36,010 nucleotides of DNA, taken from the IMG/VR virus record IMGVR_UViG_3300025408_000007; one strand, 5' to 3'. The DNA is from a virus. The notes under the pieces are model-generated. The model was not told the origin of the DNA, did not search any database, and worked only from the letters and a program-made list of their open reading frames with translations. Below are positions 1-36,010 of this stretch, in pieces (within the stretch, counting starts at the first letter, position 1; the number at the start of each line of letters is the position of its first letter). The translations under genes and the position numbers were made by a program.

Positions 1-83
1 GCTGGATGAAGGCCCTCATCGCCATCGAGGTCGTCATCGTGATCATCGTCTGCACCGTCTACCTGCTCGGGGGAAGTGGGTGA
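1..83 (+). CDS. 3' end of membrane protein (partial; identical to the end of 34527-35243)
   Basis: Identical to 35161-35243; encodes a C-terminal hydrophobic helix; TGA at 81-83. Confidence 0.85.
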   Translation, partial: WMKALIAIEVVIVIIVCTVYLLGGSG

Positions 84-850
84 GCGACAATGTTACCGCT
101 CCTCATCCCCCTGGCTCCTCACCTGGTGCGGGCAGCAACCGCCCCGAGACCGCAGCCGCAGGAACAGCTCCGCCCCTCCCCCTCCTCTCAGACCTCGCCG
201 ACCCCGGCCCCCGCCCGCTCTACCCCGTTTGACATTGCACTCCGGGGCGGCCTCGCCTTCGCCGGCCACCTCATCGGCTCCAGGGTGGACCTGCTCACCG
301 CACCCACCCGCGCCGTCAACCCTTCTATCCCCCGGGCCCGGGAAGAGTTCGCCGCCCGCCCCGTCGAGATGGTCCGGGGCGCCCTCATCGGCGCCAGCCT
401 GATCACCGGCGTCGCCGGAGGCGCTGCTCTCCTCGGTGGCGGGGGCGCCGTCGCCGCAGCAGGTCCGGCCGCGTCCGGCATCATCCGCACCGGCGGCGGC
501 GCAGCTCTCGGGTTCGCCACCCGCACCGCTCCATCCGTCGTCCAGCAGGGCGCCACAGTGGCCGCAACCGCCGCCGGCGCCACGCTCCCGATCGCCCTCG
601 CAAACGAGATCGGCCCCGCCTTCCCCGACCCCGGCCCGCAGTTCCCCACCGGCCGCCCCGGCCCGGAGATCAGCCCCGGCCGCAACCCCTACATCCTCGG
701 CCCCGGCCCCATCCCTCATTCCACCTGGGACCCCGGGCAGGCTGAGTTAGGCCCCGGGGACCGGATATCTCGGCTCGAACGCATCTCTCCCCCGTCCCCG
801 GTCGGCACCCACGAGGTCGGCCTCCACCGCGACCTCCCCGAGATCCGGCC
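1..850 (+). repeat. Direct repeat, copy 1 (copy 2 at 35161-36010)
   Basis: Colinear with no indels; about 49 substitutions in 850 bp by manual comparison, concentrated at 116-602. Confidence 0.97.
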
Positions 851-1577
851 AACCGCCGACGCATGGAGCCCCGGAGCCGCCGAGTTCCTCCAGCGCCCCC
901 AGACGAACGCCCGGTTCCGCGCCACCGAAGCGATCCCGAGCCCATCCCCGTTCGGCCCCTCCGCGTTCCCGGACGCCTTCCCTAACGTCTTCCCGACCGG
1001 CCCCCGGGGGTACATCGCCGACGAGGACGCCCCCTTCATCCAGGCCCCGTCCCCGGAAGTCCCGGCCGTCCACCCCGGCGAAGAGACCGTCCGCTACATC
1101 TTCACGCCCCGACCGGAGACCGTCACCAAACCCGACATAGCCACCTGGACGAAGACGCTCAACCTCGCCGAAGCCGGCACCCGGGACGCAACCGCCGACC
1201 TGACCGCCGACCTCTTCACCTCCCGGTCTACCTTCGCCCCGATGACCGCCCCGCTCTCTCTGGCGATCCCCACCTCCACCACCACTGACATCACCATCCC
1301 CGAGACCGCATACCCCGACACCACCGTCTTCCAGAACCCCGCCGCAAACCCCGTAGCGTTTCCCCCGGAGTTCCCCGAAGAGTTCCTCTTCGAGACCCCC
1401 TTCATCGACCAGACCCGGCGACGGGACCGCGACCCCACGAAGAGAAAGAAGACCGGCAGCCGCGGCAGCAAAGCCGAAACCGCGTTCTGGGAAAACCTCC
1501 GGGTAGCCACCCCCCGCGAGTTCCTCGGCCTCTCCCCGGCTCCCAGAAAGAAACCCGCGAAGCGGAGGAAACGATGA
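90..1577 (+). CDS. Pro/Ala-rich protein with basic C-terminal tail; possible internal virion protein
   Basis: 495-aa ORF with C-ending codon bias and operon spacing; ends RKKPAKRRKR. The second copy keeps the frame open. Confidence 0.8.
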   Translation: MLPLLIPLAPHLVRAATAPRPQPQEQLRPSPSSQTSPTPAPARSTPFDIALRGGLAFAGHLIGSRVDLLTAPTRAVNPSIPRAREEFAARPVEMVRGALIGASLITGVAGGAALLGGGGAVAAAGPAASGIIRTGGGAALGFATRTAPSVVQQGATVAATAAGATLPIALANEIGPAFPDPGPQFPTGRPGPEISPGRNPYILGPGPIPHSTWDPGQAELGPGDRISRLERISPPSPVGTHEVGLHRDLPEIRPTADAWSPGAAEFLQRPQTNARFRATEAIPSPSPFGPSAFPDAFPNVFPTGPRGYIADEDAPFIQAPSPEVPAVHPGEETVRYIFTPRPETVTKPDIATWTKTLNLAEAGTRDATADLTADLFTSRSTFAPMTAPLSLAIPTSTTTDITIPETAYPDTTVFQNPAANPVAFPPEFPEEFLFETPFIDQTRRRDRDPTKRKKTGSRGSKAETAFWENLRVATPREFLGLSPAPRKKPAKRRKR

Positions 1578-1792
1578 CCGACAAGACCCTCTATACCGAA
1601 GAAGAGACGGCAGCGATCGCCCGGTCTGCCGCCTACCGCGCCCGGCTCTCAACCGTGCTCGCCATGCTCGCCGAGACCTACCAGAACGGCCCGGAAGTAG
1701 TCCGGACCACCCTCGACGACATCCGCCGGGACTACGGCCTCACCCAGACCCCCGCACCCACTCCTCCCGGAGGCGACCGTGATGCAGAATGA
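1574..1792 (+). CDS. Hypothetical protein
   Basis: ATGA overlap with upstream stop; typical codon usage. Confidence 0.7.
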   Translation: MTDKTLYTEEETAAIARSAAYRARLSTVLAMLAETYQNGPEVVRTTLDDIRRDYGLTQTPAPTPPGGDRDAE

Positions 1793-2063
1793 CCGGGCAT
1801 CCGCCGGCGTCCTCGCCATCCTCGTTCTCGTCATCATCCTGGTCGGCTTCATCTACATCGCCACCGGCCCCGCCGTAGACACCCTCAACGGACAGTTTGC
1901 CGGCCAGTACGACAACCCCGTCTTCCCCGTATCCCTCGACCGGCAGAACTGCATGGCGAACCTCAACCTCATCTACGGCGCCTTCCTCGTCGTCGCTGTC
2001 ATCCTCCCGCTCGGCCTCTACGCCATCGTGACCGCAAACGCAGAGAATGACGGAGACGTCTGA
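1782..2063 (+). CDS. Two-TM helical-hairpin membrane protein; possible minor capsid protein
   Basis: Short charged leader (MQNDRA), two hydrophobic helices, GGAGG upstream. Confidence 0.75.
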   Translation: MQNDRASAGVLAILVLVIILVGFIYIATGPAVDTLNGQFAGQYDNPVFPVSLDRQNCMANLNLIYGAFLVVAVILPLGLYAIVTANAENDGDV

Positions 2064-2191
2064 TGATTCACAACCCCGTGCTGGTGCTGATCTGCAACAT
2101 CATCTACACCATACTCGGCCTCCTCGCGGTCCCACTCGGCCTCTATGTCATCGTGACGGCAAAACCCGAAGAACATAACGGAGATATCTGA
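2063..2191 (+). CDS. 42-aa membrane peptide paralogous to the C-terminal half of 1782-2063 (not in ORF track)
   Basis: MIHNPVLVLICNIIYTILGLLAVPLGLYVIVTAKPEEHNGDI; TGATG overlap; PLGLY-x-IVTA motif shared with the upstream gene. Confidence 0.6.
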   Translation: MIHNPVLVLICNIIYTILGLLAVPLGLYVIVTAKPEEHNGDI

Positions 2192-2192
2192 A

Positions 2193-2456
2193 ATGAGCGA
2201 TTATCCTATCGTAGTGCCGATCATCACCGGGCTCTTCACCATCATCGGCCTCTTCGCCCTTGTGCTCGGCTTCGGCCCGGTCTCCGACTGGTTCACCCTC
2301 TACATCAGCGCAGGCGGCCCCAACCCCTATGCCGACTCCTGGTATATGCTCGCCAAATTCTTCTACGCCCTGGTCATCGCCGTCGCCATCGTCGCCATCG
2401 TCTGGGTCTGGCAGAGCGTGATCGCCCGGGTGCGGTATCGGAGGGAGGTGCGGTAG
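2193..2456 (+). CDS. Two-TM membrane protein; possible minor virion protein
   Basis: Two hydrophobic helices and a basic C-terminus; abuts the next ATG. Confidence 0.75.
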   Translation: MSDYPIVVPIITGLFTIIGLFALVLGFGPVSDWFTLYISAGGPNPYADSWYMLAKFFYALVIAVAIVAIVWVWQSVIARVRYRREVR

Positions 2457-4982: not shown

Positions 4983-4990
4983 GTGATACC

Positions 4991-5374
4991 ATGCGATTCC
5001 ATGACGTCCTAACCCTGCTCACCTTCTGTGGGCCGGCCATCGCCTTAGTCAACGCCCTCGGCGTCTTCAGCCACAACTACTACGCCGCCCCCGACACCAG
5101 CACCTTCACCCTCTCCGAAATGACCTCCCTTGCGGGCCAGACCGGCCCGCTCGGCATCGGCGATTATGTCGGCATGGCGGTCTCATCCGTCCTCGGCGGC
5201 ATGGGCTGGCTCCAGGACATGATCGGCACCATCGTCTTTGTCTACCCTACGATGGTCGATATCCTCCACGTCCCCGCCCCGGTCGCCGCAATCTCTCAGT
5301 GCGTGGTCGTCCTCTCCATCGTCACGTTCCTGATCCAGCTCGCCAGCAAATTCGGATGGGGGCAGGCGAAATGA
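4991..5374 (+). CDS. Membrane protein
   Basis: GGTGAT RBS; multiple hydrophobic segments. Confidence 0.75.
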   Translation: MRFHDVLTLLTFCGPAIALVNALGVFSHNYYAAPDTSTFTLSEMTSLAGQTGPLGIGDYVGMAVSSVLGGMGWLQDMIGTIVFVYPTMVDILHVPAPVAAISQCVVVLSIVTFLIQLASKFGWGQAK

Positions 5375-7026
5375 GGCGCCCGGCCCTCGCCCTCCTCCTC
5401 GGCTGCCTCCTGCTCGTCGCCGGGGCCTCGGCCCTCGACGGCTACGACTATTACCAGACGATCGAGTACGCCGCCTGCGACCAAGAGACCTATCAGCAGG
5501 ACATCGTGGTCCACCGCACCACCGGCACCGCGTACAACGAGACCGCCGGCGGGCTGGAGACCTGGCATATCTATGTCGGGGACCACTGCCGGGAGGATTA
5601 CGGGGATGTGCGGTTCACTAACAGCACCGGGGCGGAGCTCGCGTATTATCTCTGGCCGGATTATTCGAGCAGCAGCGCCCGGTTTGCCGTGCGGCTGGAG
5701 GGTGCGGACACAGCTGGGACGCTGACAGTCTGGTATGGGAACCCGACAGCGACGACGACGAGCGACGGGGACGCCGTATATCTCTTTTTCGATCAATTCG
5801 AAGGCACTGCTCTGAATACGAGCAAGTGGGATATCACAGCAACCTCACTCACAGTATCTGGTGGGATCTGTACGATCCCTGACAGTGGATGGAAAGGTAT
5901 TGCGACAAAGGCAACCTTTGGGAATGGCGTCATGGCGGTCTGCCATCATAAGGTTTATTCCTCAACGAGTACAACTAGGGTTGCGACCATGGTCGGGTTC
6001 TCCTCCCTGTCCAGTTATGACTCGGGGAGGAACATCTATTATTCCGGCGGCGGGAGCTACGAGTGGCCCGGCGGAGCATCGAAGCCCTTTGCGACTGGCG
6101 GGACTCGCGGAGTCTTCGCAAGCACGATGATCATCCGCAAGGCGGCCGCGTATGTCATGTATAATACCGCTGGAGATACCCGATCCGCGTCTGTGCTCAG
6201 CGGGAACTACCCATTCGTCATCAACAAAGCTGGCCTGGCTGAATATTATGACTACATCCTCGTCCGGGCCTACAGCGCCGCCCCGCCCGCCGCCCTCACT
6301 TTCTCCGGCGAACCCACCTTCATCGCCACCCCCACCGCCGGCCTCGCCCCGCTCTCCGTGCAGTTCACCGACACCTCCACCGGCGGCCCCACATCATGGC
6401 TCTGGACCTTCGGGGACGGCAACACCTCAACCGCCCAGAACCCCGCCCACACCTACACCACAGCCGGCACCTACTCCGTCTCCCTCACCGCCACCAACGA
6501 ATACGGCAGCGACTACGAACTAAAAACCGACTACATCACCGTCTACGGCCCCATCACCGCACAGTTCACCACCAGCATCACCGGCGGCACCGCCCCGCTC
6601 ACCGTCCAGTTCACCGACACCAGCGCCGGCGGCCCCACCTCATGGCTCTGGACCTTCGGCGACGGCAACACCTCCACCGACCAGAACCCGCAGCACACCT
6701 ACACCGTGGCCGGCACCCACACCGTCACTCTCACCGCCTCGCACCCCTACGATAGTGACACCGAGACCAAAACCGCCTACATCACCGTCGCCGTCCTCCA
6801 GCCCTTCCCCGGCCTCTCGCTCACTCCTACCGACCTCACCGGCGACGGCCTTTACGAAGACATCAACGGCAACGGCAGGTCAGACTACAACGACCTCACC
6901 ATCTTCTTCCTCAACCTCGCATGGGCCAGAGACAACGAACCAACCGAGTGCTTCGACTTCAACCAGAACGGCCGCCTCGACTACGCGGACGTCATCGCCC
7001 TCTTCCAGGTGATCAAAAATGCGTAA
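5371..7026 (+). CDS. Secreted adhesin: DUF2341-like + lectin-like domain + 2 PKD + C-terminal dockerin-like domain
   Basis: Signal peptide from ATG 5371; DYGDVRFT...WYGNP motif (DUF2341-like); two VQFTDTS-GGPTSWLWTFGDG PKD repeats; paired EF-hand-like loops DINGNGRSDYND and DFNQNGRLDYAD; no TM anchor. Confidence 0.85.
   Translation: MRRPALALLLGCLLLVAGASALDGYDYYQTIEYAACDQETYQQDIVVHRTTGTAYNETAGGLETWHIYVGDHCREDYGDVRFTNSTGAELAYYLWPDYSSSSARFAVRLEGADTAGTLTVWYGNPTATTTSDGDAVYLFFDQFEGTALNTSKWDITATSLTVSGGICTIPDSGWKGIATKATFGNGVMAVCHHKVYSSTSTTRVATMVGFSSLSSYDSGRNIYYSGGGSYEWPGGASKPFATGGTRGVFASTMIIRKAAAYVMYNTAGDTRSASVLSGNYPFVINKAGLAEYYDYILVRAYSAAPPAALTFSGEPTFIATPTAGLAPLSVQFTDTSTGGPTSWLWTFGDGNTSTAQNPAHTYTTAGTYSVSLTATNEYGSDYELKTDYITVYGPITAQFTTSITGGTAPLTVQFTDTSAGGPTSWLWTFGDGNTSTDQNPQHTYTVAGTHTVTLTASHPYDSDTETKTAYITVAVLQPFPGLSLTPTDLTGDGLYEDINGNGRSDYNDLTIFFLNLAWARDNEPTECFDFNQNGRLDYADVIALFQVIKNA
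6358..6780 (+). repeat. Tandem PKD-domain coding repeat (two copies)
   Basis: Near-identical DNA stretches cagttcaccgacacc...acctacacc beginning near 6361 and 6607. Confidence 0.85.
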
Positions 7027-8092
7027 CCTCCTCGCAACCCTGCTCCTCGCCGCCCTCCTCATCACCACGGCGAGCGCCGCGACCGTCTCCGTCAGCGACG
7101 TAACCTTCCAGAGGGACAGCACCGGGACCGCTACTATCACCCTCACCGGCGCAGACAGCGGCCTCTCCGGTTACTCCCTCACAGCCTCCGTCAGCGGCAC
7201 CGCCGCCCGGATCACACAGGTAGACTTCCCCGGCTGGGCCGTCATCCACAGCGCCGGCGACCTCCCCTCCTCCTCCGTCGCCCTCGACGCCGTAGACCTC
7301 AACAACGCCGTCACCGGCCCCACAGCAACCCTCGCCACCCTCACCCTCTCCGGCATCAGCCCCGGCACCGGCACCATCTCCGTATCCGTCACCTCCATGG
7401 ACGACGACGCCGGCCAGCCCATCACCCCCTCCACCGAGAGCGGCACCTACTCCGTCACCATCGCCCCTGGCGGCACCGACTACCCCCTCTGCGACGGCCT
7501 CACCATCAGCGCCGGCAACATCACCGCACAGAGCGTCCACCTCTCCGGCACCACCCCCTACCCCGAAGTCTGGATCGTCCTCGGCGCCGCCCCCGGAAAA
7601 TACGGGTATCAGTCCTCAATCATCTCCACCAACACCTCAGACTACTCCGCCACCATCGTCTCCCTCCCCCTCATCGCCGGCCAGACCTACTACGCCCGGG
7701 CAGGCACCGCCGGCGGCTACTCCCCGGAGACCTCCTTCAGCCTCCCGGCCCTCACCCCCGCCCCCGTCACCACCCACGGCGACATCTTCCACACCCTCAT
7801 GGCCGGCAACCTCTCCATCGGGGACGTCTGGACCGCCGAGGCCGACCTCTACGCCCGACCCTTCGGCGGCGGAGACTTCGGCCTCGCGGCGTTCATCTCC
7901 ATCGTCTCCGCGTTCGTCTTCGTCATCCTCTTCCTCAGGAGTGGTGATGTGATCGTCCCGTTCACGGTCGCCGCTCTCATCGGCGGTATGCTCGTCCCCT
8001 ACCTCCTCCCGCAGTTCGCGGAGATCGGGTATGCCTTCATGGTCGCGGCGATGATCGGCATAGGCTACAGCCTGTATCGGAGGTACATCTGA
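7019..8092 (+). CDS. Membrane-anchored cohesin-domain protein
   Basis: Signal peptide; GLSGY...ITQVDFPGWA...LPSSSV...AVDL...LATLTL...MDDDAG matches the pattern I recall for methanogen cohesin domains; three C-terminal TM helices. Confidence 0.75.
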   Translation: MRNLLATLLLAALLITTASAATVSVSDVTFQRDSTGTATITLTGADSGLSGYSLTASVSGTAARITQVDFPGWAVIHSAGDLPSSSVALDAVDLNNAVTGPTATLATLTLSGISPGTGTISVSVTSMDDDAGQPITPSTESGTYSVTIAPGGTDYPLCDGLTISAGNITAQSVHLSGTTPYPEVWIVLGAAPGKYGYQSSIISTNTSDYSATIVSLPLIAGQTYYARAGTAGGYSPETSFSLPALTPAPVTTHGDIFHTLMAGNLSIGDVWTAEADLYARPFGGGDFGLAAFISIVSAFVFVILFLRSGDVIVPFTVAALIGGMLVPYLLPQFAEIGYAFMVAAMIGIGYSLYRRYI

Positions 8093-8253
8093 TGACCCGG
8101 AAAAAGGATTACGTGGTAGACCTCCGGCCCCTCGGCGGCCGGGTGGTCCGGATTGACTCCCTGGACACCATCCCCCTCCCCGTCTACGACCGGCGGCAGG
8201 GGTGCTCTCTCGGCCGCTACACGCTCCGGGACCTACAGAAAAAATTCCTTTAA
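8092..8253 (+). CDS. Small hypothetical protein (53 aa, not in ORF track)
   Basis: TGATG overlap; MTRKKDYVVDLRP...KKFL. Confidence 0.45.
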   Translation: MTRKKDYVVDLRPLGGRVVRIDSLDTIPLPVYDRRQGCSLGRYTLRDLQKKFL

Positions 8254-8311
8254 TATATATTTTAGTGGGATACGATAGAATCTATATAGTAACAGATTCT
8301 AAATATATACT
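8250..8311 (+). promoter_or_regulatory. AT-rich promoter with TATA-like boxes and a TAGAATCT/AGATTCTA inverted repeat
   Basis: Sharp AT-rich island; TCTATATAG about 25 nt upstream of ATG 8312; 8-bp inverted repeat flanking it. Confidence 0.6.
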
Positions 8312-8476
8312 ATGCGACAGAGCCCCGCACGAGAAACCTTCCTGCTCGGCAGCGTCGAATCCAAAATCCTCGAAGCAGCCACCGAGAGCGGGATCGCCTG
8401 CTCCAAGTCCGACGCCGCCCGCAAAGCGCTCATTTTCTGGGGCGAACACCACGGGCTCTCCTGTGGGAAGAGGTGA
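8312..8476 (+). CDS. Small RHH-like DNA-binding protein (54 aa, not in ORF track)
   Basis: MRQSPARETFLLGSVESKILEAATESGIACSKSDAARKALIFW; the SKSDAARKAL segment resembles RHH helix B; its end contains the GAGGTGA RBS of the pilin. Confidence 0.55.
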   Translation: MRQSPARETFLLGSVESKILEAATESGIACSKSDAARKALIFWGEHHGLSCGKR

Positions 8477-8481
8477 ATTGA

Positions 8482-8856
8482 ATGTCCTTCAAAAACGATG
8501 AAGCAGTTTCTCCCGTGATCGGGGTGATCCTGATGGTCGCCGTCACCGTCATCCTGGCGGCCGTCATCGCCGCCTTCGTGTTCAACATGGCAGACGACGT
8601 AGAGACAACGAAGACCGTCATGCTCTCCGCAAAGTTAGTGCCGGACGGCATCGAGTCCATCCTCCAGGGCGGATCCGGGCTGGCGCAGTTAGTGGAGATC
8701 ACGTACAGCGTCAACGGGACCGAGAAGGCATCACAGACCGACAATTTCACCGTAGGGAACGTCTCGGTAATCCCCGGCGGGAAAGCGGCCCGGTTCCTCG
8801 TCGTCGGGCACTTCAGCGACGGCAGCGAACAGATCTTACTAAACAAACAGTTCTAA
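8482..8856 (+). CDS. Archaeal type IV pilin (class III signal peptide)
   Basis: KNDEA|VSPVIGVILMVAVTVILAAVIAAFVF is the canonical archaeal pilin N-terminus. Confidence 0.92.
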   Translation: MSFKNDEAVSPVIGVILMVAVTVILAAVIAAFVFNMADDVETTKTVMLSAKLVPDGIESILQGGSGLAQLVEITYSVNGTEKASQTDNFTVGNVSVIPGGKAARFLVVGHFSDGSEQILLNKQF

Positions 8857-8863
8857 CGGTGCA

Positions 8864-9196
8864 ATGAACCGGAACTCCCCCCTATTTTACGTGGCCCTGC
8901 TGCTGGCACTCCTCGCCGCCGACATCTTCACAACCGTCTGGTTCACGCGGCTCGGCATGGCCGAAGCAAATTACCTCCTCGCCCCCCTCGCCGGCTCGGT
9001 CTGGATGCAGGCCATCTTCAAAGCGCCGTTTGCCCTCGCCCTCATCACCGGCACCTTCCTCTGCTCCGCCTCCTGCGACCTCCTCCGGCCCGGGTCCGGG
9101 AAATACCCCTGGCTGGCCGTGCTCGCGGTCTACACGCTCCCGCCGGTCTACAATCTCGTCCAGATTACCCAGCACGTCGCCGGCGCATTTGGGTAG
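8864..9196 (+). CDS. Membrane protein, DUF5658-like
   Basis: D-x-x-TT...G-x-x-EAN-x-L motif; three TM helices. Confidence 0.65.
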   Translation: MNRNSPLFYVALLLALLAADIFTTVWFTRLGMAEANYLLAPLAGSVWMQAIFKAPFALALITGTFLCSASCDLLRPGSGKYPWLAVLAVYTLPPVYNLVQITQHVAGAFG

Positions 9197-9200
9197 GTTT

Positions 9201-11540: not shown

Positions 11541-11541
11541 G

Positions 11542-13774: not shown

Positions 13775-15007
13775 ATGCACGAGCGCCAGCAGACCTTCCA
13801 GGACCTCGCGGCGCTCCACTACGTCCAGCGTCTGAACCCCGTGCAGGTGCGGATCCTCAAACTCCTCGCCCTCGGCGACTACACCCAGGCCGAGATCGGG
13901 CGGCGGCTCAACGTCAGCAGGCAGTACGTCAACCAGATTGTCAGCAAATTCCAGAAATACAACCTCGTCAAGAAGAACGGCCGCGCCTGGACCGTCAAGT
14001 ACCGCACCGACGACCGGCCCCACCGGGAAGACTACCTCACCCGGGAGAAGGCCGAAGCCGCCGCCGAGCAGGCCCGGAAGAACGGCATCTCCCCCACCAT
14101 CGAGCCCACCGCCGGCAGCCCCTACAACGCCACCTACGCCGTCAACCCGGCCCTCAGAAAACAGATCGACCGCGAAACCGACTACATCCAGTACACCAAC
14201 TGCCGCGTCCACAACATCCGCCGGTCCTACACCATCCTCAGACAATCCGGCCCCGTCGCCACCGACCCCCGCACCGGCTACGAAAAGAGCTGGAACATGC
14301 GGGGCGGCGCCCGCCACAAATTCTTCTACCCCGGCAAAGGCACCGCCCCGAACGTCACGATCGACGTCCACCCCGGCACCCTCACGGCCTACCCCGACCG
14401 GGGGCAGACCGTCACCGCCGAGAGCATCCAGGACGCCGAAGAACTCACCCGGAAAGCCATCGCGGATGCCATCGCCCTCTTCGTCGAAGGGCAGCGGCGC
14501 TTCGGCGTATACCTCGAAGTCACGCACGGCCGCCAGCCAACAAAAACCCACTACGGCTTCGCCTTCAGCACCGACGCCCCGCACGCTGCCGAACAAACCG
14601 CCCTCCCCGGCTTCTGGATCGACCACAGCCCCGAGAGCAACGGCGACCCCTACCACGCCGAGATCGAGACCCTCGACCCCGCCCGGGCGACCGGCCTCGA
14701 CCGGGCCATCATGCAGATGCACCGGCTTGACAGCACCATCGCCGACCACATCACCGCCGCGATCCCCCAGGCCATCCAGCCGCTCACCGCCCAGCTCAAC
14801 AGCATCGAGGCGGCCGTCTGCGGCGGCATCACCATGCAGCAGAAGCTCGACAACGTGACCCAGATTCTCGCCGCCGTCATGAAGCGGAACGAACAACTCT
14901 GGGACCTCGTTCTGACCAACCTTGTCCCCGGTCAAACCGGGCACGAAAACCACCCCTGCCAACCCCCCACAACGGGCGGCAACGGAGGAAGACATGCAAA
15001 GACATGA
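13775..15007 (+). CDS. Winged-HTH protein with large central domain and coiled-coil C-terminus; candidate replication initiator or regulator
   Basis: ILKLLALGDYTQAEIGRRLNVSRQYVNQIVSKF is a wHTH; strong codon bias. The replication role is inference only. Confidence 0.7.
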   Translation: MHERQQTFQDLAALHYVQRLNPVQVRILKLLALGDYTQAEIGRRLNVSRQYVNQIVSKFQKYNLVKKNGRAWTVKYRTDDRPHREDYLTREKAEAAAEQARKNGISPTIEPTAGSPYNATYAVNPALRKQIDRETDYIQYTNCRVHNIRRSYTILRQSGPVATDPRTGYEKSWNMRGGARHKFFYPGKGTAPNVTIDVHPGTLTAYPDRGQTVTAESIQDAEELTRKAIADAIALFVEGQRRFGVYLEVTHGRQPTKTHYGFAFSTDAPHAAEQTALPGFWIDHSPESNGDPYHAEIETLDPARATGLDRAIMQMHRLDSTIADHITAAIPQAIQPLTAQLNSIEAAVCGGITMQQKLDNVTQILAAVMKRNEQLWDLVLTNLVPGQTGHENHPCQPPTTGGNGGRHAKT

Positions 15008-16833: not shown

Positions 16834-17643
16834 ATGACAACCTCTAGCACACCCCTCACTCACCTCTCGCTCTACTCAGGTATTGGGGGTATTGACCTCG
16901 CTGCGGAGTGGGCAGGGTTCAAGACCATCGGACAGGTTGAGAAGGACGCCTTTGCAAACAAGATACTAGCAAAGCATTGGCCGGGTGTGCCCCGATGGAA
17001 GGATATCAAGGATGTTGAAGTAGATGATGTCATTGGAAAAACTGGAATCAGATCACCGACCCTCATCTCTGGTGGCTTTCCGTGCCAGCCGTTCAGCAGC
17101 GTCGGACTCAAACGAGGCAAAGATGACCCTCGTTACCTCTGGCCGGAAATGCTTAGAATCGTGCGGGAGTACCGGCCGTCTTGGGTTGTTGGAGAAAATG
17201 TTGCTGGACTCAAAGGACTGGCACTCGACCAAATCTGCTCTGACTTGGAGGATATCGGTTACGCCTACCGGGCGTTCAGTATTCCAGCTGGAGCCGTTGG
17301 AGCCGACCAACTCCGGAGAAGAATTTTTGTGGTTGCCAACGATGTTGGCCTGCGATCTAGAGAAGCCGCTCCGCAGAAGGTGTCCGTCAGAGCGCAGCAA
17401 ATCTCACGGGACAATGTTCGTTGCAGCAATGGGGGAACTGCTGTTGCCAAGCACCGAATCGTTCCGCTCTCAATGTGGACGGGAGTACCTAAACCCACAG
17501 TTAATAGAAATGGTGATGGGGTTCCCTACAGGGTGGACAGATGCGTTGCACTCGGAAACGCAGTTGTCCCTCAGCAAATATATCCAATCCTGAAAGGGAT
17601 TGCGGAGATCGAACAGATGGTAGAGAACAGAAGGGAGGACTGA
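16834..17643 (+). CDS. C5-cytosine DNA methyltransferase (compact, virus type)
   Basis: Motifs I (LYSGIGG), IV (GGFPCQPFS), VI (ENV), VIII (Q-x-RRRIF) and X (LGNAVVPQ). Confidence 0.95.
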   Translation: MTTSSTPLTHLSLYSGIGGIDLAAEWAGFKTIGQVEKDAFANKILAKHWPGVPRWKDIKDVEVDDVIGKTGIRSPTLISGGFPCQPFSSVGLKRGKDDPRYLWPEMLRIVREYRPSWVVGENVAGLKGLALDQICSDLEDIGYAYRAFSIPAGAVGADQLRRRIFVVANDVGLRSREAAPQKVSVRAQQISRDNVRCSNGGTAVAKHRIVPLSMWTGVPKPTVNRNGDGVPYRVDRCVALGNAVVPQQIYPILKGIAEIEQMVENRRED

Positions 17644-21132: not shown

Positions 21133-21762
21133 TCACTCAGGCACCGGCCGGCTCACGACCACGAGGCCAACCTCCTCTTGATCTCCTCTCCCCTCTTTCT
21201 TCCTCTTGTAAAATGTCGGGAGGGCATACCCGCACACGATGGCCGCCGCCCGCTCGGACAGCCCCTTTCCCTTCCAGTGCTCGATCTTTCCCCAATCGAT
21301 CTCGACCCGCTTCCGACCGATCTGTTTCCCCTGAGCCCTGGCCCGAGCCAACCCCGCCTTCGTATCCTCCTGGATCTTCTTCCTCTGGAGGTCGGCACCA
21401 AGCGTCACAGCCGAGGTGAGGAGGGGCTGAAGTTCCGGTTGAGCATTCAGGACGAACTCATCAAGTTTATTCAGCGAGATAACTTTGATACCCGCATCCT
21501 GCAGCCGCCATATCTCCTGCAGGGTCCCCTTCGCATCCCTGCCGAGGCGGGAGAGGTCGGTAACGTACAACTCCTGCACATCCCCGGTATTAAGCAGCGC
21601 GATCATCTGCTTGTACCCGGGCCGCTGTTCGGGATCCTTCGCCCCACTCACCCCTTGGTCGCGGAAGATCAGGTGTTCAGGGACCCCGACCTCCCGAAGC
21701 TGTTTGAGCTGCCGACCCATGTCCTGGCTGTCTTGCGAGGTCCGTGCGTATGCTATTTTCAT
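21133..21762 (-). CDS. Serine recombinase (resolvase/invertase family) with C-terminal HTH
   Basis: IAYARTS...DQGVSG...RPG...VTDLSRLGRD...RTKAGL-like...GKQIGR; start placed at MKIAYARTS. Confidence 0.93.
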   Translation of the reverse strand: MKIAYARTSQDSQDMGRQLKQLREVGVPEHLIFRDQGVSGAKDPEQRPGYKQMIALLNTGDVQELYVTDLSRLGRDAKGTLQEIWRLQDAGIKVISLNKLDEFVLNAQPELQPLLTSAVTLGADLQRKKIQEDTKAGLARARAQGKQIGRKRVEIDWGKIEHWKGKGLSERAAAIVCGYALPTFYKRKKEGRGDQEEVGLVVVSRPVPE

Positions 21763-22107
21763 ACTTAGTATCAATCTCCACCTTTGATATAGTATATCTG
21801 CTATCAAAAAGCATATACGTTTCGATAGTGTACGAATGGTCGTTTGATAGAGTGTCACCGAAGGCCCACTTTTGTTAAAACTGAATTATTTGAGTGTCGG
21901 CCAAAAGTGCGGTATATCGAGATGGGCGCAGGCAGAACCTAGATGTGATCCGGACGGTTCACTTTTACCACAAAACAGAACCCTGTTTTACCCTCTCAGG
22001 AAGGAACCAAATCAGAAAAGGACAATCTCTTATCGGGACACCCAGAGATAAAGGTTTTGGAATCGGAGAGGAAAGGTAATATATTATGCGTGTGTATGTG
22101 TGTGTGT

Positions 22108-22239
22108 ATGCAATCAAAGAAACCAAAGTGTCCGCGCTGTGAAAGTGGGACTGTGTATGTCCGGAAGGACGGATCGCTTGTGTGCCGCCGATGTGGATAC
22201 GATTCAACGAGGGATGAGCATGAAGATAAGGATCAGTAA
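22108..22239 (+). CDS. Small Zn-ribbon protein
   Basis: CPRC...VCRRCGY. Confidence 0.6.
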   Translation: MQSKKPKCPRCESGTVYVRKDGSLVCRRCGYDSTRDEHEDKDQ

Positions 22240-23266
22240 GATCGACGACTCAGCCTTCACCGTCCGGGAGAAGTTAAACCAAGAGCCGCTCGATGAGCTG
22301 AAAGAATCGCTCAAAGAGGATGGCCAGTGGGACCCGATCATCGTCCGGCAGAAGGGGGAGCGATACGAGGTCATCGCCGGACACCGCCGCGTGCAGGCCG
22401 CTAAGGAATTGGGGTGGGTTGAGATCGACGCGACGGTTAGGGATATTGATGAGACCGAAGCGTTGTTCCTTGCGCTGAAAACAAACCTAATTCGCGAAGA
22501 GATGTCTCCAAGGGAGCAGGGTAAAGTACTTCATCAGATTGTCACCATACTCGATATCAGCCAAAGGGAACTTGCTCGGAGAATTGGAAAAGGGGAAACG
22601 TGGGTGAGAGATAGGATAAAATCTGCCATTGATCTTCATCCTGATGTGATCAAGGCCGTCGATGAGAAAAAAATTACGTGGGCCGTCGCATCGAGAGTGA
22701 TCGCCACTTTACCTCTGCGCTCCCAGAGCGCATTTTTAATATATTTATTAGATAATAAAATAACTGGGGATGACGATGCACGGAAAGCACTTCGCCGTTT
22801 CCTCAACGACACCCTCTACACGGTCGGTTATGAGGGTAAATCTCTCGACCAGTTCCTAACTATCCTCAAGACAAATAAGATCGATACTCTGATCGATGTT
22901 CGCTTCTCTGTCGAGAGCCAGTACAAACCGGAGTTCAGCGGCAACCTCCTCGCCAGGGAGCTCCAGCGGAACGGGATCAAGTATGCCCACCGGAAAGAGT
23001 TCGGGGTCCCATACGAGTGGCAGAACCCTTACAAAGAGGGGGCCATACCGTTCGAATGCCTGGATAAATATTATCGGTGGAACGTCAAGAAGAACACCGA
23101 CTTTAAAGCGTTCCTCGATGGTGTCAAGGAGAACGGGAAAACCGCCCTGATGTGCTACGAGCGATATGCAACCGCAAAGAGGGAACAGACCATATCCTGC
23201 CATCGGTCCATCCTAGCGGCCATCATGCAGGAGACAGGGGAGTTTAAGGAGGTCGTCCATTTATGA
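22220..23266 (+). CDS. ParB/Srx N-terminal domain fused to a DUF488-like domain
   Basis: LKESLKEDGQWDPIIVR...VIAGHRRVQA...NLIREEM (ParB); LYTVGYEG...LIDVRF...LMCYER...CHRSIL (DUF488 pattern). Confidence 0.85.
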   Translation: MKIRISKIDDSAFTVREKLNQEPLDELKESLKEDGQWDPIIVRQKGERYEVIAGHRRVQAAKELGWVEIDATVRDIDETEALFLALKTNLIREEMSPREQGKVLHQIVTILDISQRELARRIGKGETWVRDRIKSAIDLHPDVIKAVDEKKITWAVASRVIATLPLRSQSAFLIYLLDNKITGDDDARKALRRFLNDTLYTVGYEGKSLDQFLTILKTNKIDTLIDVRFSVESQYKPEFSGNLLARELQRNGIKYAHRKEFGVPYEWQNPYKEGAIPFECLDKYYRWNVKKNTDFKAFLDGVKENGKTALMCYERYATAKREQTISCHRSILAAIMQETGEFKEVVHL

Positions 23267-24018
23267 AGGAACGCCTCCTCCTTCTTTGCATGACATACCC
23301 AACAGAAAGCCGGAAGTATGGCTCGTCTGTGTGTATGGCTGGGATTACGGACGAGGGGGAGTTCCGCAGGATTTATCCTGTTCCATACGAGGTATTCAGA
23401 AACAGAAAAGACCGATTTAAGAAGCGCCACTACATCGAGTATGAGATCAGGGAGAAAGGGGATTACAGGAAAGAGAGTTTCAAGGTCTATCCTGAATCCA
23501 TCCGCGTTCTCTCTGATGAGGTTGATTACGACGAAGGGATCAGGGTTATCGGGCAGCGACATGCCAGCACCCTGGAGGATCTTCAACTCGCATGGAAAGA
23601 AGATCGAACCTCCCTTGGAATAATCAAACCTGCCCTTCTTGATATGAAAGTGATCGGAAATAAACAATCCGATACAACTATTCAGAGCACACTCAACGAC
23701 GGCGGCATAATGCCGGAAATGCTCAAACACTCCTTTATCTACCACTTCCATTGCTCTGAATCATGCAGCTACATCCATAAGTGCAGTTGTCTGGACACTG
23801 AGATCGGGCAACTCTACAGGAAATTAAAGAAAGTCAATTCACTCGACCTTGCAGCCGCAAAAGTAAAAGACCGTTTTGTCACGTGGATGAAGGAGACTCG
23901 TGAGCCCTACTTCATGATGGGCACCCACTCCTACCACCCCAATAAATGGATGGTGATCTCCGTGCTCTACCCGAAGAAGAGAAATCAAACTTCTTTGGGT
24001 GTGTTCGGCGGGGGGTGA
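23263..24018 (+). CDS. Dual-OB-like protein of the type found next to DUF488 genes
   Basis: VCMAGI...FRRIYP...SLGIIKP pattern; ATGA-coupled to the DUF488 gene. Confidence 0.55.
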   Translation: MKERLLLLCMTYPTESRKYGSSVCMAGITDEGEFRRIYPVPYEVFRNRKDRFKKRHYIEYEIREKGDYRKESFKVYPESIRVLSDEVDYDEGIRVIGQRHASTLEDLQLAWKEDRTSLGIIKPALLDMKVIGNKQSDTTIQSTLNDGGIMPEMLKHSFIYHFHCSESCSYIHKCSCLDTEIGQLYRKLKKVNSLDLAAAKVKDRFVTWMKETREPYFMMGTHSYHPNKWMVISVLYPKKRNQTSLGVFGGG

Positions 24019-24757: not shown

Positions 24758-24875
24758 ATGCCAACAAAATCAGAAGAGTATCTTGCGGTGCATAAATCCT
24801 CCCCGAAAAGGATGAGGCCGCCTTGAGTGCGGGTGGGACGAAGTAGGGGAGGGAGTGCCGGCAATTTTACTACCC

Positions 24876-33184: not shown

Positions 33185-33538
33185 ATGTCCCTGATCAAGA
33201 AGTACACCGCATACGCCAAGGAGCAGCTCGCCGTCGTCCAGACCTGCGGGGCTCGCGCCGCCTTCCAGAAGCTCCGGATCGACAGCGAGGACGGTAACGT
33301 CAACCTCGTTATCGGCTTCATCGTCACCGCAATCGTCATGGCGATGGGTGTCATCATCCTGGCGAACGTCGAATCTGCAACGCCGGCGATCGACAACACG
33401 TCCGCGTGGTACACGCTCCAGCAGTCGCTCGCGACCACGACCCAGAGCGGCTACGGCCTCCTGGCGATCGTGCTGATCATCATGGCAGCGGCCGGTATCC
33501 TCGGTGTGCTGTTCCTGTTCACGCCGCGGAACAAGTAG
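33185..33538 (+). CDS. Putative major capsid protein, spindle-shaped-virus type (cleavable leader plus two hydrophobic helices)
   Basis: Own promoter and GAGGTGAT RBS; charged leader ending SEDG, then TM - polar loop (DNTS) - TM, as in SSV1 VP1 and His1-type capsid proteins. Confidence 0.7.
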   Translation: MSLIKKYTAYAKEQLAVVQTCGARAAFQKLRIDSEDGNVNLVIGFIVTAIVMAMGVIILANVESATPAIDNTSAWYTLQQSLATTTQSGYGLLAIVLIIMAAAGILGVLFLFTPRNK

Positions 33539-33550
33539 GCGAGGTGCTTC

Positions 33551-34039
33551 ATGCTCCTCCGACCTCTTTTTCCCCTCTGCGCTATCGCGCTTCTCCTCCT
33601 CCTGCTCACCGCACCAGCCGCCGCCGTCAACGTCACCGCCACGAACACCACCACCATCCTTCCCGCAGACGTCGCATACCTCCCGTTCGAGATCTGGCTC
33701 CCGCTTGCCATCGCCCCGTTCCTCTTCCTCTTCCTCTCGCTCTGGTCCGGCATCAGCGCTCACGATCTCTGGGCTCTCCTGGCGTTCATCTTCTCGGCAG
33801 CCGCCGCCTACCTCTCGACCGCCATCGCCTTCACCACCACGCATACCGAAGTCATCAACGGCGAGATCTACGTCGTCCCCGTCGAAATCGTCGCCCACCC
33901 CCCTTATCTCCCCTACCTGATCGGGCTCATCACCGCGATCAGCGTCGTCAACATGATCCGGGTGATCTGGGAAGACTACTTCCGTCCCGTCCGGGACGCA
34001 AAACTGATGGAAGCCGGCGAAATGCCGCCCATGAGGTGA
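33551..34039 (+). CDS. Multi-pass membrane protein
   Basis: Signal peptide, NVT and NTT sequons, three or more TM helices. Confidence 0.75.
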   Translation: MLLRPLFPLCAIALLLLLLTAPAAAVNVTATNTTTILPADVAYLPFEIWLPLAIAPFLFLFLSLWSGISAHDLWALLAFIFSAAAAYLSTAIAFTTTHTEVINGEIYVVPVEIVAHPPYLPYLIGLITAISVVNMIRVIWEDYFRPVRDAKLMEAGEMPPMR

Positions 34040-34046
34040 CCACTCA

Positions 34047-34523
34047 ATGCCAATCGAAATGTCCAAAGAAGAGTATGACGCGCTGATGAAGCGGGTGAAC
34101 GACCCGAACCGCCCGCTCCCCCAGAGCGGCCCCTCCATCGCCGAGCAGTCCCTCTCCATGCTCCTCGACCCCGACATCCCGGACGACGGCAGCCTCGAAG
34201 ACCTCTGGCTCTTCTCCGGCGACGTCGCCCGACACGTCGAGCTCACGAACATCCCCACGCCCGAAGCGCACCGCAAGTTCCGCCGGGCCACCACCAGCAT
34301 CCTCCGCGTCGCCACCTGGGACGCCAAAGACTACCTGCAGCAGCGGATGGCGAAACTCGCCTTCTGCGACATCCTCGCCGGAAAATCCATCGGCTACACC
34401 CGGCACACCCGGGAGCGGGATGCTTTGAACGAGAACCGCCTGACGCAGACCCTGCGGGACGACCGTCCCCTCCCGCCCCGGAACGACGGCGGCGGCTTCC
34501 TCTCCTTCCTCAAGCGAGGTTAA
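34047..34523 (+). CDS. Hypothetical protein (morphogenesis cluster)
   Basis: Codon bias and operon position. Confidence 0.75.
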   Translation: MPIEMSKEEYDALMKRVNDPNRPLPQSGPSIAEQSLSMLLDPDIPDDGSLEDLWLFSGDVARHVELTNIPTPEAHRKFRRATTSILRVATWDAKDYLQQRMAKLAFCDILAGKSIGYTRHTRERDALNENRLTQTLRDDRPLPPRNDGGGFLSFLKRG

Positions 34524-34526
34524 CCC

Positions 34527-35243
34527 ATGTCAACCATAACCGTTACTCCAACCGGCGCCGAGGTCGGCGGAATGATCCTCGGCCTCCCCTGGTTCATCTG
34601 GGGCTTCGTAGTGCTCGGCCTCGTCATCCTCTTCAGCAACGCCTTATGGGTCTGGTACTGGTGGACCATGGGTCCCGTCTCCGGCTACTTCCGAGCCTCC
34701 CGCACCAACACCGACCTCGGCATTGTCTGCCTCAAGAGCGGCCGGATGCGCTTCTACGCCATGGACTACATCGCCGGCATCTTCAACGCCGTAGGGCTCC
34801 CGCTCTCGTGGATCCAGCGGTCCCCCGACTCGCACCGCTTCGGCGCCGTCAACGCCAAGATCTTCCTCGACACCTGGGGTATCGCCACCGACCCGAAGCT
34901 TCAGGCCGCGGTCAAAGCCGCCATCATCGACTGGAACGAGACCCACACCGAGAGCGATCAGATCGCCGACTACGAAGACCTCTACAACCTCGTCAAGGCC
35001 GGAAAGATTGACGATCCGATCTTGATGCCGGCAGTCTGCGAAGTCCCCCTCTACGAAATCGAACGCTACCTCCCGCACATCGGTGCCGGCGACCTCGAAG
35101 GCCACATCGCCGAGCGCGTCGCCGAAGAGACCGACGACCTCAAAACCTCCTCTTGGCCCGGCTGGATGAAGGCCCTCATCGCCATCGAGGTCGTCATCGT
35201 GATCATCGTCTGCACCGTCTACCTGCTCGGGGGAAGTGGGTGA
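34527..35243 (+). CDS. Membrane protein with N- and C-terminal TM helices
   Basis: Codon bias; hydrophobic ends. Confidence 0.8.
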   Translation: MSTITVTPTGAEVGGMILGLPWFIWGFVVLGLVILFSNALWVWYWWTMGPVSGYFRASRTNTDLGIVCLKSGRMRFYAMDYIAGIFNAVGLPLSWIQRSPDSHRFGAVNAKIFLDTWGIATDPKLQAAVKAAIIDWNETHTESDQIADYEDLYNLVKAGKIDDPILMPAVCEVPLYEIERYLPHIGAGDLEGHIAERVAEETDDLKTSSWPGWMKALIAIEVVIVIIVCTVYLLGGSG

Positions 35244-36010
35244 GCGACAATGTTACCGCTCCTCATCCCCCTGGCCCCTCACCTCGTGCGGGCGGCAACC
35301 TCCACCCGCCCACAGCCACAGGCACAGCTCCGCCCCTCCCCCTCTCCTCAGACCTCGCCGACCCCGGCCCCCACGCTCTCCACTCCGTTTGACATCGCCC
35401 TCCGGGCCGGCCCCGCCTTCGCCGGCCACCTCATCGGCTCCAGGGTGGACCTGCTCACCGCACCCGCCCGGACCGTCAACCCATCTATCCCCCGGGCCCG
35501 GGAAGAGTTCGCCGCCCGCCCCGTCGAGATGGTCCGGGGCGGCCTCATCGGCGCCAGCCTGATCACCGGCGTCGCGGGAGGTGCCGCCCTCCTCGGTGGC
35601 GGCGGGGCCGTCGCCGCAGCAGGTCCGGCCGCGTCCGGCATCATCCGCACCGGCGGCGGAGCCGCTCTCGGCCTCGCCACCCGCACCGCCCCCGCGATCG
35701 TCCAGCAGGGCGCCACAGTGGCCGCAACCGCCGCCGGCGCCATGCTCCCCCTCGCCCTCGCCAACGAGATCGGCCCCGCCTTCCCCGACCCCGGCCCGCA
35801 GTTCCCCACCGGCCGCCCCGGCCCGGAGATCAGCCCCGGCCGCAACCCCTACGTCCTCGGCCCCGGCCCCATCCCGCATTCCACCTGGGACCCCGGGCAG
35901 GCTGAGTTAGGCCCCGGGGACCGGATATCTCGGCTCGAACGCATCTCTCCCCCGTCCCCGGTCGGCACCCACGAGGTCGGCCTCCACCGCGACCTCACCG
36001 AGATCCGGCC
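35161..36010 (+). repeat. Direct repeat, copy 2
   Basis: Colinear with 1-850, ~94% identical. Confidence 0.97.
35250..36010 (+). CDS. Second, divergent allele of the 90-1577 gene (partial, runs off the window)
   Basis: Same frame kept open; many substitutions are synonymous. Confidence 0.8.
   Translation, partial: MLPLLIPLAPHLVRAATSTRPQPQAQLRPSPSPQTSPTPAPTLSTPFDIALRAGPAFAGHLIGSRVDLLTAPARTVNPSIPRAREEFAARPVEMVRGGLIGASLITGVAGGAALLGGGGAVAAAGPAASGIIRTGGGAALGLATRTAPAIVQQGATVAATAAGAMLPLALANEIGPAFPDPGPQFPTGRPGPEISPGRNPYVLGPGPIPHSTWDPGQAELGPGDRISRLERISPPSPVGTHEVGLHRDLTEIR

Follow-up and report, generated by a model that had tools for sequence, protein, structure and literature searches.

A 35-kb element linked by CRISPR spacers to Methanoculleus carries a virion-like module with a candidate helical-hairpin capsid protein

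What kind of particle, if any, would be built by a methanogen element that carries none of the genes of head-tailed viruses? We addressed this question for IMG/VR record IMGVR_UViG_3300025408_000007, a stretch of 36,010 nucleotides (the window, by which we mean the whole stretch) in which a short gene at 33185-33538 encodes a hydrophobic two-helix protein, our capsid candidate. A first-pass annotation, made from the letters alone, had described the window as the complete genome of a probable temperate, spindle-shaped virus of a Methanoculleus-like methanogen, citing an ATPase, the two-helix protein with its charged leader, further hairpin membrane proteins, a large anchored spike, an intact integrase and an absence of head-tail genes. 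The best explanation overall is a non-head-tail virus of Methanoculleus with a hairpin capsid protein and a lemon or spindle shape, a reading to which we give slightly better than even chances.

The gene inventory of the first-pass annotation proved correct. Scans of about 45 open reading frames (ORFs) of the window with Pfam and/or PHROGs returned no terminase, portal, HK97 capsid or tail family, and no conjugation ATPase or relaxase was found among the ORFs covered by these general family scans. The ATPase and the integrase are present with their signature motifs, the spike (2457-4982) has a signal peptide and C-terminal transmembrane (TM) helices, and further hairpin or multi-TM proteins are encoded at 33551-34039, 34527-35243, 1779-2063, 2193-2456 and 4991-5374. 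Gene calling by third-position GC and translation gave a long plus-strand operon that starts at about 30989, passes the right end and resumes at position 1 to stop at about 9200, then numerous small plus-strand genes at 9.3-24.8 kb, and a minus-strand block at 24.9-30.8 kb with the integrase gene at its end.

A blastn self-comparison revealed a direct repeat at the ends of the window, positions 1-850 matching 35161-36010 with 94.2% identity over 851 columns, from which a unit length of 35,160 bp follows. Bases 1-89 are identical to 35161-35249, and all 47 mismatches fall inside the gene that starts at 90 (35250 in the right copy), where they alter 18 of 253 residues. Since the ends repeat and their differences are confined to one hypervariable gene, the unit of ~35.16 kb is most likely circular, and the window most likely represents an essentially complete circular genome of ~35.2 kb. 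The simplest reading of the mismatches would be that the assembler rounded the circular genome once and then entered a second strain variant of the hypervariable gene. The description as a complete genome is upheld by the 850-bp overlap, with the reservation that the repeat is imperfect and not a clean terminal repeat.

The 117-residue capsid candidate has a charged N-terminal third and TM segments at about residues 36-66 and 86-116, and its AlphaFold2 (AF2) model, with a predicted local distance difference test (pLDDT) score of 88, places helices at residues 2-21, 23-65 and 76-112, so that the leader and hairpin seen in the first-pass annotation are both recovered. An exhaustive HMMER search at E 0.001 or better collected a family whose 51 representatives, taken at 50% identity, nearly all have 87-151 residues and carry no annotation. 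In an alignment of 49 family sequences, which excludes a 5975-residue protein matched over 12 stretches along with two further rows, a variable N-terminal part is followed by an acidic residue or pair just before helix 1, by an inter-helix loop with an N-x-S/T sequon in 40 of 46 members, by a helix 2 that begins with the conserved TTxSGYGLL, and by a basic C terminus.

Among known proteins, this family most resembles the capsid protein, defined by cryo-electron microscopy, of the large lemon-shaped virus Sulfolobus monocaudavirus 1 (SMV1). In a profile search of the PDB, entry 7ro2 came first of 177,635 sequences, at E 0.058 and with both helices aligned; 7RO2 is the SMV1 major capsid protein (PMC10866085). 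With hhalign, the match to this protein (gp03, 157 residues) reached 73-76% (E 2.2e-5, 74 columns, 28% identity), and the candidate and gp03 both consist of an N-terminal leader and two long hydrophobic helices. Hydrophobic hairpins tend to draw spurious matches, and as a control, hhalign was run against 88 TM-containing ORFs of 60-300 residues from SSV1, His1, PAV1, SMV1, HRPV-1 and His2: the SMV1 major capsid protein scored 72.9%, SSV1 VP3 10.5% and SSV1 VP1 4.7%, while none of the remaining ORFs exceeded 1.5%. When hmmsearch was applied to 1170 ORFs of these six viruses, the SMV1 protein was again first, followed at rank 3 by SSV1 VP1, at rank 8 by PAV1 ORF121, at rank 11 by SSV1 VP3 and at rank 14 by His1 VP21. 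We also shuffled the SMV1 protein 100 times, leaving each segment (leader, helix 1, loop, helix 2) with its own composition; the shuffles scored 12.8 +/- 2.7 (maximum 21.6) and the reversed protein 19.3, compared with 32.5 for the native protein (z ~7). Because the SMV1 protein tops the 88 TM ORFs and no shuffle reaches the native score, the similarity is, at the level of sequence, specific and not explained by hydropathy. Homology to the SMV1 protein is likely, not established, as the scores lie below the level usually taken as proof.

Several results weigh against a spindle-virus capsid. The helical-hairpin fold is generic: VIA-align superposed 91 of 94 residues of the model on 7ro2_A at 2.8 A (Z 7.4), yet 7ro2 ranked 49th among the hits, amid many equal hairpins, and structure comparison of the model is thus compatible with a capsid protein and uninformative. 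Foldseek gave no significant match of the capsid model in the PDB or BFVD. The first-pass annotation had expected relatives among the SSV1 VP1 and His1 capsid proteins, an expectation that failed in profile comparison. Pfam VP1_VP3 (PF06281) is absent among the 25 families listed for the 49 members at E up to 1, and His1_capsid (PF25665) was hit by two of the 49 (best E 0.049) amid equally weak matches to generic membrane families. Profile alignment to a combined alignment of SSV1 VP1/VP3, His1 VP21 and PAV1 ORF121 reached 8.8%, and to ORF121 and VP21 singly 0.4% and 0.9%. No other window protein matches a virion protein of SMV1 (selected ORFs), PAV1 or SSV1. Weaker leads point towards a capsid protein. 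One is phrog_16261 ('virion structural protein'), which 15 of the 49 members match (best E 1e-6); at E 0.001 or less, another ten members of the family had no match, no source virus was traced for this PHROG, and it is not that of SSV1 VP1/VP3, SMV1 gp03/gp06/gp11 or HRPV-1 VP3. One family member matches the SSV1 VP1 PHROG at 0.0021, and the nearest Pfam-bearing ESM-Atlas clusters are VP1_VP3 (0.85) and His1_capsid (0.84), both leads only; PAV1 ORF121 and His1 VP21 themselves have no PHROG match at E up to 0.01. The spindle morphology proposed at first pass is therefore moderately supported, by the specific SMV1 match and not by the SSV1 VP1/VP3 and His1 families.

Since the hairpin fold alone fixes no shape and the Pfam spindle-capsid families are not matched, the same genes could also build an enveloped, pleomorphic or roughly spherical particle, in which the 117-residue hairpin and the small TM proteins would form the envelope or matrix and the large anchored proteins the spikes. 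We regard this as fairly unlikely. The module is indeed dominated by membrane and anchored surface proteins, and, as in the Pleolipoviridae (HRPV-1, His2), a membrane-protein-rich virion module includes an ATPase gene and non-lytic persistence would be expected. Moreover, Methanofollis, the genus of the closest cultured relative, includes Methanofollis aquaemaris, which is reported to have 200-nm coccoid enveloped particles and not spindles (PMC9583781), a point that counts against a lemon shape; these particles have no sequence, however, and the link is circumstantial. No similarity was detected to pleolipovirus VP3, VP4, ORF6, ORF7, VP8 or the His2 spike, which belong to other PHROGs and gave hhalign values of at most 1.3%. 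The candidate does not match pleolipovirus VP3 (0.2%), the ATPase falls outside the VP8 family phrog_1979, and, as far as sequence goes, none of the large window proteins matches the pleolipovirus spike (no PHROG match, same hhalign limit). Both pleolipovirus matches that the first-pass annotation had named as refuting it were thus looked for by sequence, and neither appeared. The specific, shuffle-controlled similarity is instead to the capsid protein of a lemon-shaped virus.

For the host of this probable lemon-shaped virus, DNA searches were made in 401 genomes from the order of the Methanofollis genome (Methanomicrobiales). A query from the integrase region gave 37-nt matches (36/37) in two genomes, both inside clustered regularly interspaced short palindromic repeat (CRISPR) arrays with a 32-nt repeat, and an exact search with it led to the record 'MAG: Methanoculleus sp. 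isolate Yes49-05' (MAG, metagenome-assembled genome). Some ten additional matches, 33-38 nt long and 97-100% identical, came from a search with the window's right half. Genome G158 has two adjacent spacers (36/36 and 33/33) in a confirmed array, whose repeat differs from the Methanoculleus repeat by one base within the 24 nt compared; G053 has two in a confirmed array (37/37 and 34/36); and G234 has one (38/38) in an array matching Rfam CRISPR-DR60. In total, seven spacers in confirmed arrays of five Methanomicrobiales genomes match the window, and about six additional matches (33-37 nt, 97-100% identity) are known as DNA matches only. Three short pieces of 26013-27388 are 86% identical to a hypothetical-protein gene of Blf4, a siphovirus of Methanoculleus bourgensis. 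Since CRISPR spacers match the window, the Methanoculleus-like host proposed at first pass no longer depends on inference, and the assignment to Methanoculleus, order Methanomicrobiales, is solid on this sequence evidence. Methanoculleus is a dominant hydrogenotrophic methanogen in biogas reactors, and Blf4 is, to our knowledge, its only isolated virus with a sequenced genome. Separately, 335 nt of the window (18037-18371) are 88% identical to contig C23 of the spacer-bearing genome G008 and may represent an accessory gene common to the virus and its host, or to a resident element.

Relatives of the element reveal which of its genes travel together. The ATPase has 16 homologues in a large protein collection, one of them, at 72% identity, from the cultured Methanofollis sp. 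W23, where the gene lies on a 37,497-bp contig (G001:C2). This contig has an exact 95-bp end overlap inside a tandem repeat of ~143 bp and is therefore likely a circular replicon; the repeat (L008/L009) is a possible origin or iteron region. The W23 homologue of the capsid candidate is encoded at 23630-23980, on the minus strand. All genes of the window from 30989 round to the pilin gene are kept in W23 in the same order, except for most of the DUF2341/PKD gene, and the two elements also have a methylase, a DUF6573 protein and a resolvase in common. There is no tyrosine integrase on the W23 contig, and the W23 chromosome has only a 30%-identical one that adjoins a tRNA; the W23 relative looks episomal. 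On a metagenome contig of 37,229 bp with 41% GC (L042), 12 module genes are present and syntenic. The hairpin gene of L042, at 9064-9456, was uncalled, the caller having given a 274-residue ORF (9168-9992) that lies partly over it in another frame; automated gene calling can miss this capsid-like family. A distant element, L013, retains the order ATPase (27% identity), hairpin protein (32%), multi-TM protein (position only), soluble protein (25%), two-TM protein (25%) and a protein of 1859 residues. Thus, the module spans hosts of 41-61% GC on replicons of 35-37 kb, beside a variable remainder. The 850-bp overlap of the window together with the sizes of the W23 and L042 elements argues for a discrete replicon of constant size, and a conserved module on a replicon of near-constant size is the pattern that would be expected of a virion module.

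A fourth relative, MAG contig L003, has an integrase and a hairpin protein 99% identical to those of the window. Its ATPase gene (10001-11089) is the divergent one among neighbours, with 74% identity beside the integrase, hairpin protein and ParB at 97-99%, which suggests that recent recombination replaced the ATPase gene in L003. Further relatives were sparse. Among the 401 genomes, seven had an ATPase match; single-protein searches of genome contigs with the ATPase and the integrase gave no relatives, and an alignment search of such contigs gave three short MAG contigs, one labelled Methanomicrobiales. A pattern search of IMG/VR viral contigs found none. Genome G012 was considered as an integrated relative and rejected, as it lacks the hairpin protein and the module; at ~953,000-966,000 of G012:C1 (L025/L026) it carries a 26%-identical integrase, a 27%-identical ATPase of the same type and a 1542-residue protein, and on sequence appears to be a different mobile element.

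The ATPase is the one window protein with solid homologues in known elements. It starts at the ATG at 32014, overlapping the stop of the upstream gene (an ORF start at 31819 was discarded as over-extension), and matches phrog_22963 at E 2e-34, the same PHROG as ORF375 (8.7e-196) of Pyrococcus abyssi virus 1 (PAV1), a spindle-shaped virus of Thermococcales. Direct comparison with ORF375 gave E 1e-9 in tblastn and 99.4% in hhalign, a homology to a spindle virus that speaks for our reading; tblastn also matched the Thermococcus and Pyrococcus plasmids pIRI48, pTN2 and pP12-1. ORF375 is an ABC-like P-loop ATPase without an assigned role, which lies in the half of PAV1 held in common with pTN2-type plasmids and is also found in a Methanococcus voltae A3 provirus (PMC3543421). 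Because this plasmid-shared half of PAV1 and Thermococcales plasmids carry the gene, a PAV1-type ATPase is not a virus hallmark, which counts against a viral nature (PMC3543421); it ties the element, by sequence, to the euryarchaeal mobilome and not specifically to virions. We also dropped the interpretation of 30989-33117 as the PAV1 ORF180b-137-375 cassette, and of the module as resembling PAV1 in more than its ATPase, as only the ATPase-ORF375 pair scored when small family alignments were compared with all PAV1 ORFs and with selected SMV1 ORFs. The 129-residue protein that precedes the ATPase has no detectable homology to PAV1 ORF137 and no PDB match, the 160-residue protein at 30989-31471 belongs to no Pfam or PHROG family, and pairwise BLASTP between four module proteins and their positional equivalents in PAV1 gave nothing.

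The element could, on this evidence, be no virus at all and instead an integrative or episomal plasmid-like element, whose operon would serve cell-surface or membrane functions (adhesins, a pilin and small membrane proteins) and which would spread by vesicles or another route. Its best-matched protein is common to non-mobilisable Thermococcales plasmids (PMC3543421), and ParB, resolvase, integrase, methylase and pilin are all frequent on plasmids; the pattern search found no IMG/VR relatives, and CRISPR targeting does not separate plasmids from viruses. However, the hairpin family bears a specific resemblance to a capsid protein established by experiment, the scanned ORFs include neither a conjugation ATPase nor a relaxase, and a module of at least 12 genes with large, variable, adsorption-like proteins, kept across hosts of 41-61% GC at near-constant 35-37 kb, is typical of a packaged genome. 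We therefore consider a plasmid-like element less likely than a virus, and distinctly unlikely. A virus with the same capsid type and a bacilliform or rod-shaped, clavavirus-like particle is very improbable: the hairpin fold does not fix particle shape, and similar helical-hairpin capsid proteins reportedly form both rod- and lemon-shaped particles in cryo-electron microscopy work on SMV1 and ATSV, but it is lemon-shaped viruses, SMV1 ahead of SSV1, that match best by sequence, and 35 kb would be a large genome among the known bacilliform archaeal viruses.

If the element is a lemon- or spindle-shaped virus, its virion would be encoded by one co-oriented operon, 30989-36010 continuing into 1-9196. 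The product of 33185-33538 would be made as a precursor from which the charged leader of ~36 residues is removed, and the remaining hydrophobic hairpin of ~80 residues would polymerise side by side into a lemon- or spindle-shaped capsid shell, as the SMV1 and SSV capsid proteins do, with the inter-helix loop, usually bearing an N-glycosylation sequon, facing outward. The neighbouring small membrane proteins may be minor virion or assembly components. Adsorption could be mediated by the anchored 841-residue beta-sandwich protein, the DUF2341/PKD lectin-like protein and the variable product of 90-1577, and the ATPase may act in genome handling or assembly. For persistence, the element would either be integrated by its tyrosine integrase or stay episomal like its Methanofollis relative, and ParB, resolvase and methylase would support its maintenance. 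All features are collected in Table 1.

Table 1. Features of the window. Percentages are identities to the counterparts in Methanofollis sp. W23 and on contigs L003, L042 and L013.
Position	Strand	Feature	Evidence
1..850	.	Left copy of imperfect terminal direct repeat	Right copy 35161-36010, blastn self-comparison
90..1577	+	495-aa Pro/Ala/Gly-rich protein, basic C terminus, strain-variable	Second partial copy 35250-36010
1574..2456	+	Gene for a 72-aa soluble protein and two genes for two-TM hairpins of 94 aa and 87 aa	All kept in W23, L042
2457..4982	+	841-aa membrane-anchored adhesin-like 'spike'	Signal peptide, C-terminal TM cluster
4991..5374	+	127-aa membrane protein	Translation; comparison with W23 and L042
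5371..7026	+	Secreted DUF2341 (lectin-like) protein, two PKD domains, no TM anchor	PKD_4 E 3.1e-37, DUF2341 E 3.9e-22
7019..8092	+	357-aa protein, signal peptide and C-terminal TM helices	C-terminal 206 aa 67% identical in W23
8482-8856	+	Archaeal type IV pilin-like gene	Pilin_N E 1.7e-16
8864-9196	+	DUF5658-like 110-aa membrane protein	DUF5658 E 6e-4 (weak)
13775..15007	+	410-aa protein, N-terminal winged helix-turn-helix (HTH); candidate regulator or replication protein	Sigma70_r4, MarR_2; phrog_10086
16834..17643	+	C5 cytosine DNA methyltransferase	PF00145 E 9e-36; W23 47%
19744-19779, 19779-19811, 24373-24408, 24791-24828, 28645-28681		Further protospacers (arrays of G158, G053, G234)	Spacer matches
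21133..21858	-	Serine recombinase (resolvase)	PF00239 E 1.2e-28
22100..24018	+	ParB_N-HTH-DUF488 fusion (22100-23266) and coupled 251-aa gene	phrog_25907; L003 97-99%
24786..24860	+	DUF3800-X RNA motif (Rfam RF02984) between convergent gene blocks	63.9 bits vs gathering score 38.2
25257..29460	-	Minus-strand block of unknown-function genes, including DUF6573 (28681-29106)	Pfam/PHROG scans
29405..29441	.	Protospacer of Methanoculleus sp. isolate Yes49-05 spacer	36/37 match
29475..30758	-	Tyrosine integrase, 427 aa, C-terminal Cys4 extension	PF00589 E 5.6e-15; L003 99.3%
30989..31471	+	160-aa soluble protein, K/R-rich C-terminal tail, first module gene	W23 43%, L003 88%
31628..32017	+	129-aa protein overlapping ATPase start codon	W23 57%, L042 33%
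32014..33117	+	P-loop ATPase, PAV1 ORF375 / pTN2-plasmid type, 367 aa	GSGKST Walker A motif, LDEAH
33185..33538	+	Candidate major capsid protein precursor, 117 aa	~36-aa charged leader and hydrophobic alpha-helical hairpin
33551..34039	+	162-aa four-TM core-module membrane protein	W23 65%, L042 41%
34047..34523	+	158-aa soluble, predicted all-helical core protein	Kept to 25% identity in L013
34527..35243	+	238-aa protein, N- and C-terminal TM helices, soluble middle	W23 73%, L042 50%, L013 25%

Among the other operon products, the 158-residue soluble protein gave a poor, all-helical AF2 model (pLDDT 55) that appears unlike a jelly-roll capsid protein. The 495-residue protein has counterparts by position of 531 residues in W23, 1528 in L042 and 1859 in L013, and the L003 assembly also ends inside a gene of this type; the gene is hypervariable and a possible host-range determinant. 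K/R-rich tails (for example ...PRKRKSSKRKR) occur on the products of 30989-31471 and 90-1577, and by analogy with SSV1 VP2 these proteins may bind or condense DNA. The 841-residue protein contains two CarboxypepD_reg domains (E 2.4e-23) and one PEGA domain; its C-terminal 560 residues are kept in W23 (48%) and L042 (32%), but its N-terminal ~280 residues are not. The PKD region of the 5371-7026 product resembles host genes, and the 357-residue protein at 7019-8092 has no Pfam or PHROG family match. The 8864-9196 product showed a weak pairwise BLASTP match to the SSV1 DUF5658 ORF (E 0.003); the DUF5658 family is also common in cellular archaea.

Is the element temperate, as the first-pass annotation proposed? 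The integrase is intact, with the catalytic motifs R (ALRIEEL), HxxR (HVLRHAR) and Y (ECYVH) all present. Against this, no tRNA-like sequence is present in the window (Rfam gave none in the 26013-27388 region either), no attP/attB pair was found, no close integrated copy was found in the 401 Methanomicrobiales genomes, and the W23 relative looks episomal. The DUF3800-X RNA is 84-95% identical over ~60 nt to loci in about 35 of the 401 genomes, three of which, when excised, scored 80-85 bits, and the G234 spacer matches the region of this RNA 38/38. The RNA may have been captured from a host, or it could serve as an attP directed against a host small RNA gene. No DUF3800-X RNA adjoins the related integrases of other genomes, one of which lies next to a tRNA instead. 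One hint of integration comes from a protein of the L042 type (P0111, 158 residues), which is on record with the same neighbours on contigs up to 177.6 kb. A temperate lifestyle is thus plausible and unproven, and a PAV1-like carrier state is equally possible. In the minus-strand block of the window, an element of 105 nt is repeated at 26715-26818 and 27299-27401 (90% identity), within the Blf4-matching region.

How does this element compare with known spindle-shaped viruses? SMV1 and the window element both have a circular double-stranded DNA genome of tens of kilobases with an integrase. Apart from the capsid protein, no gene is detectably common to the two, the ATPase here is of another type, and the host is a mesophilic methanogen, whereas that of SMV1 is a thermoacidophilic crenarchaeon. 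With PAV1, the clearly homologous ATPase is accompanied by a similar gene order (a small two-TM protein, small membrane or soluble proteins, and large lectin-like surface proteins) and by the apparently episomal lifestyle of the relatives. However, ORF121, the PAV1 capsid protein, and all other PAV1 proteins have no detectable similarity in BLASTP or hhalign, the genome here is twice as large, and its lectin-like protein has no TM anchor. Two TM-anchored lectin-domain proteins form the core of Thermococcales spindle viruses (PMC12934983). The window encodes one unanchored DUF2341/PKD lectin-like protein and one anchored CarboxypepD_reg protein, neither with similarity to ORF676 or ORF678.

With SSV1 (Fuselloviridae) and His1 (Halspiviridae), the element has in common that its capsid protein would be short and two-helical and that an integrase and a DUF5658-like ORF are encoded; SSV1 VP1 further resembles the candidate in that its leader stops at an acidic residue right in front of helix 1 and its loop bears sequons. 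They differ in that the DnaA-like ATPase of SSV1 and His1 is missing here and the genome here is more than twice as large. Spindle-virus contigs have already been reported for methanogens, namely Methanosarcina spindle-shaped virus 1 (Eurekaviridae), C1359 and C1697 (PMC9796341; PMC12451623); a pair of short contigs whose capsid proteins are of the SSV1/His1 type was described by Ngo et al. (PMC9796341). Like the window element, the reported spindle viruses were predicted from anaerobic-digester metagenomes through a capsid-like protein, and C1359 had a Methanoculleus spacer match (PMC9796341; PMC12451623). Compared by description only, their capsid proteins are of the SSV1/His1 type (HHpred 95-99%), whereas the candidate here is nearest to SMV1; C1359 and C1697 are 8-10 kb, C1697 with a protein-primed polymerase, whereas the element here is 35 kb and has no polymerase.

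A search of GenBank phage records with the ATPase (tblastn) found PAV1 only, and megablast of 25 kb of the window gave short Blf4 matches only. Neither IMG/VR, as far as pattern searches reach, nor the GenBank phage records appear to contain the family, which standard virus-detection pipelines probably overlook. A 2025 ICTV summary lists Eurekaviridae (Methanosarcina) as the sole classified family of methanogen spindle viruses, and none for Methanomicrobiales (PMC12451623). On sequence comparison, with the 2023 methanogen-virus compendium outside it, the window element probably represents a new, family-level lineage of archaeal non-head-tail viruses with a helical-hairpin capsid protein. We put forward more tentatively, as a proposal with less than even chances, that it founds a new family of Methanomicrobiales viruses with genomes of 35-37 kb (in Methanoculleus, Methanofollis and lower-GC relatives), in which a capsid protein truly homologous to that of SMV1 is combined with a replication and maintenance half of PAV1/pTN2-type plasmid genes.

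If this is true, the lineage of 'large lemon-shaped' capsid proteins would extend from hyperthermophilic Crenarchaeota to mesophilic methanogens, and a valid SMV1 link would connect, by sequence, the lemon-shaped viruses of euryarchaea and crenarchaea. The circular element of 37.5 kb that the cultured Methanofollis sp. W23 carries would then be a ready laboratory model, and the unexplained particles that Methanofollis cultures have long shown might even stem from that element. Taken together, the window and its relatives set out a virion-like module whose capsid candidate can be tested, with a firm CRISPR link to the host and a related element in culture.

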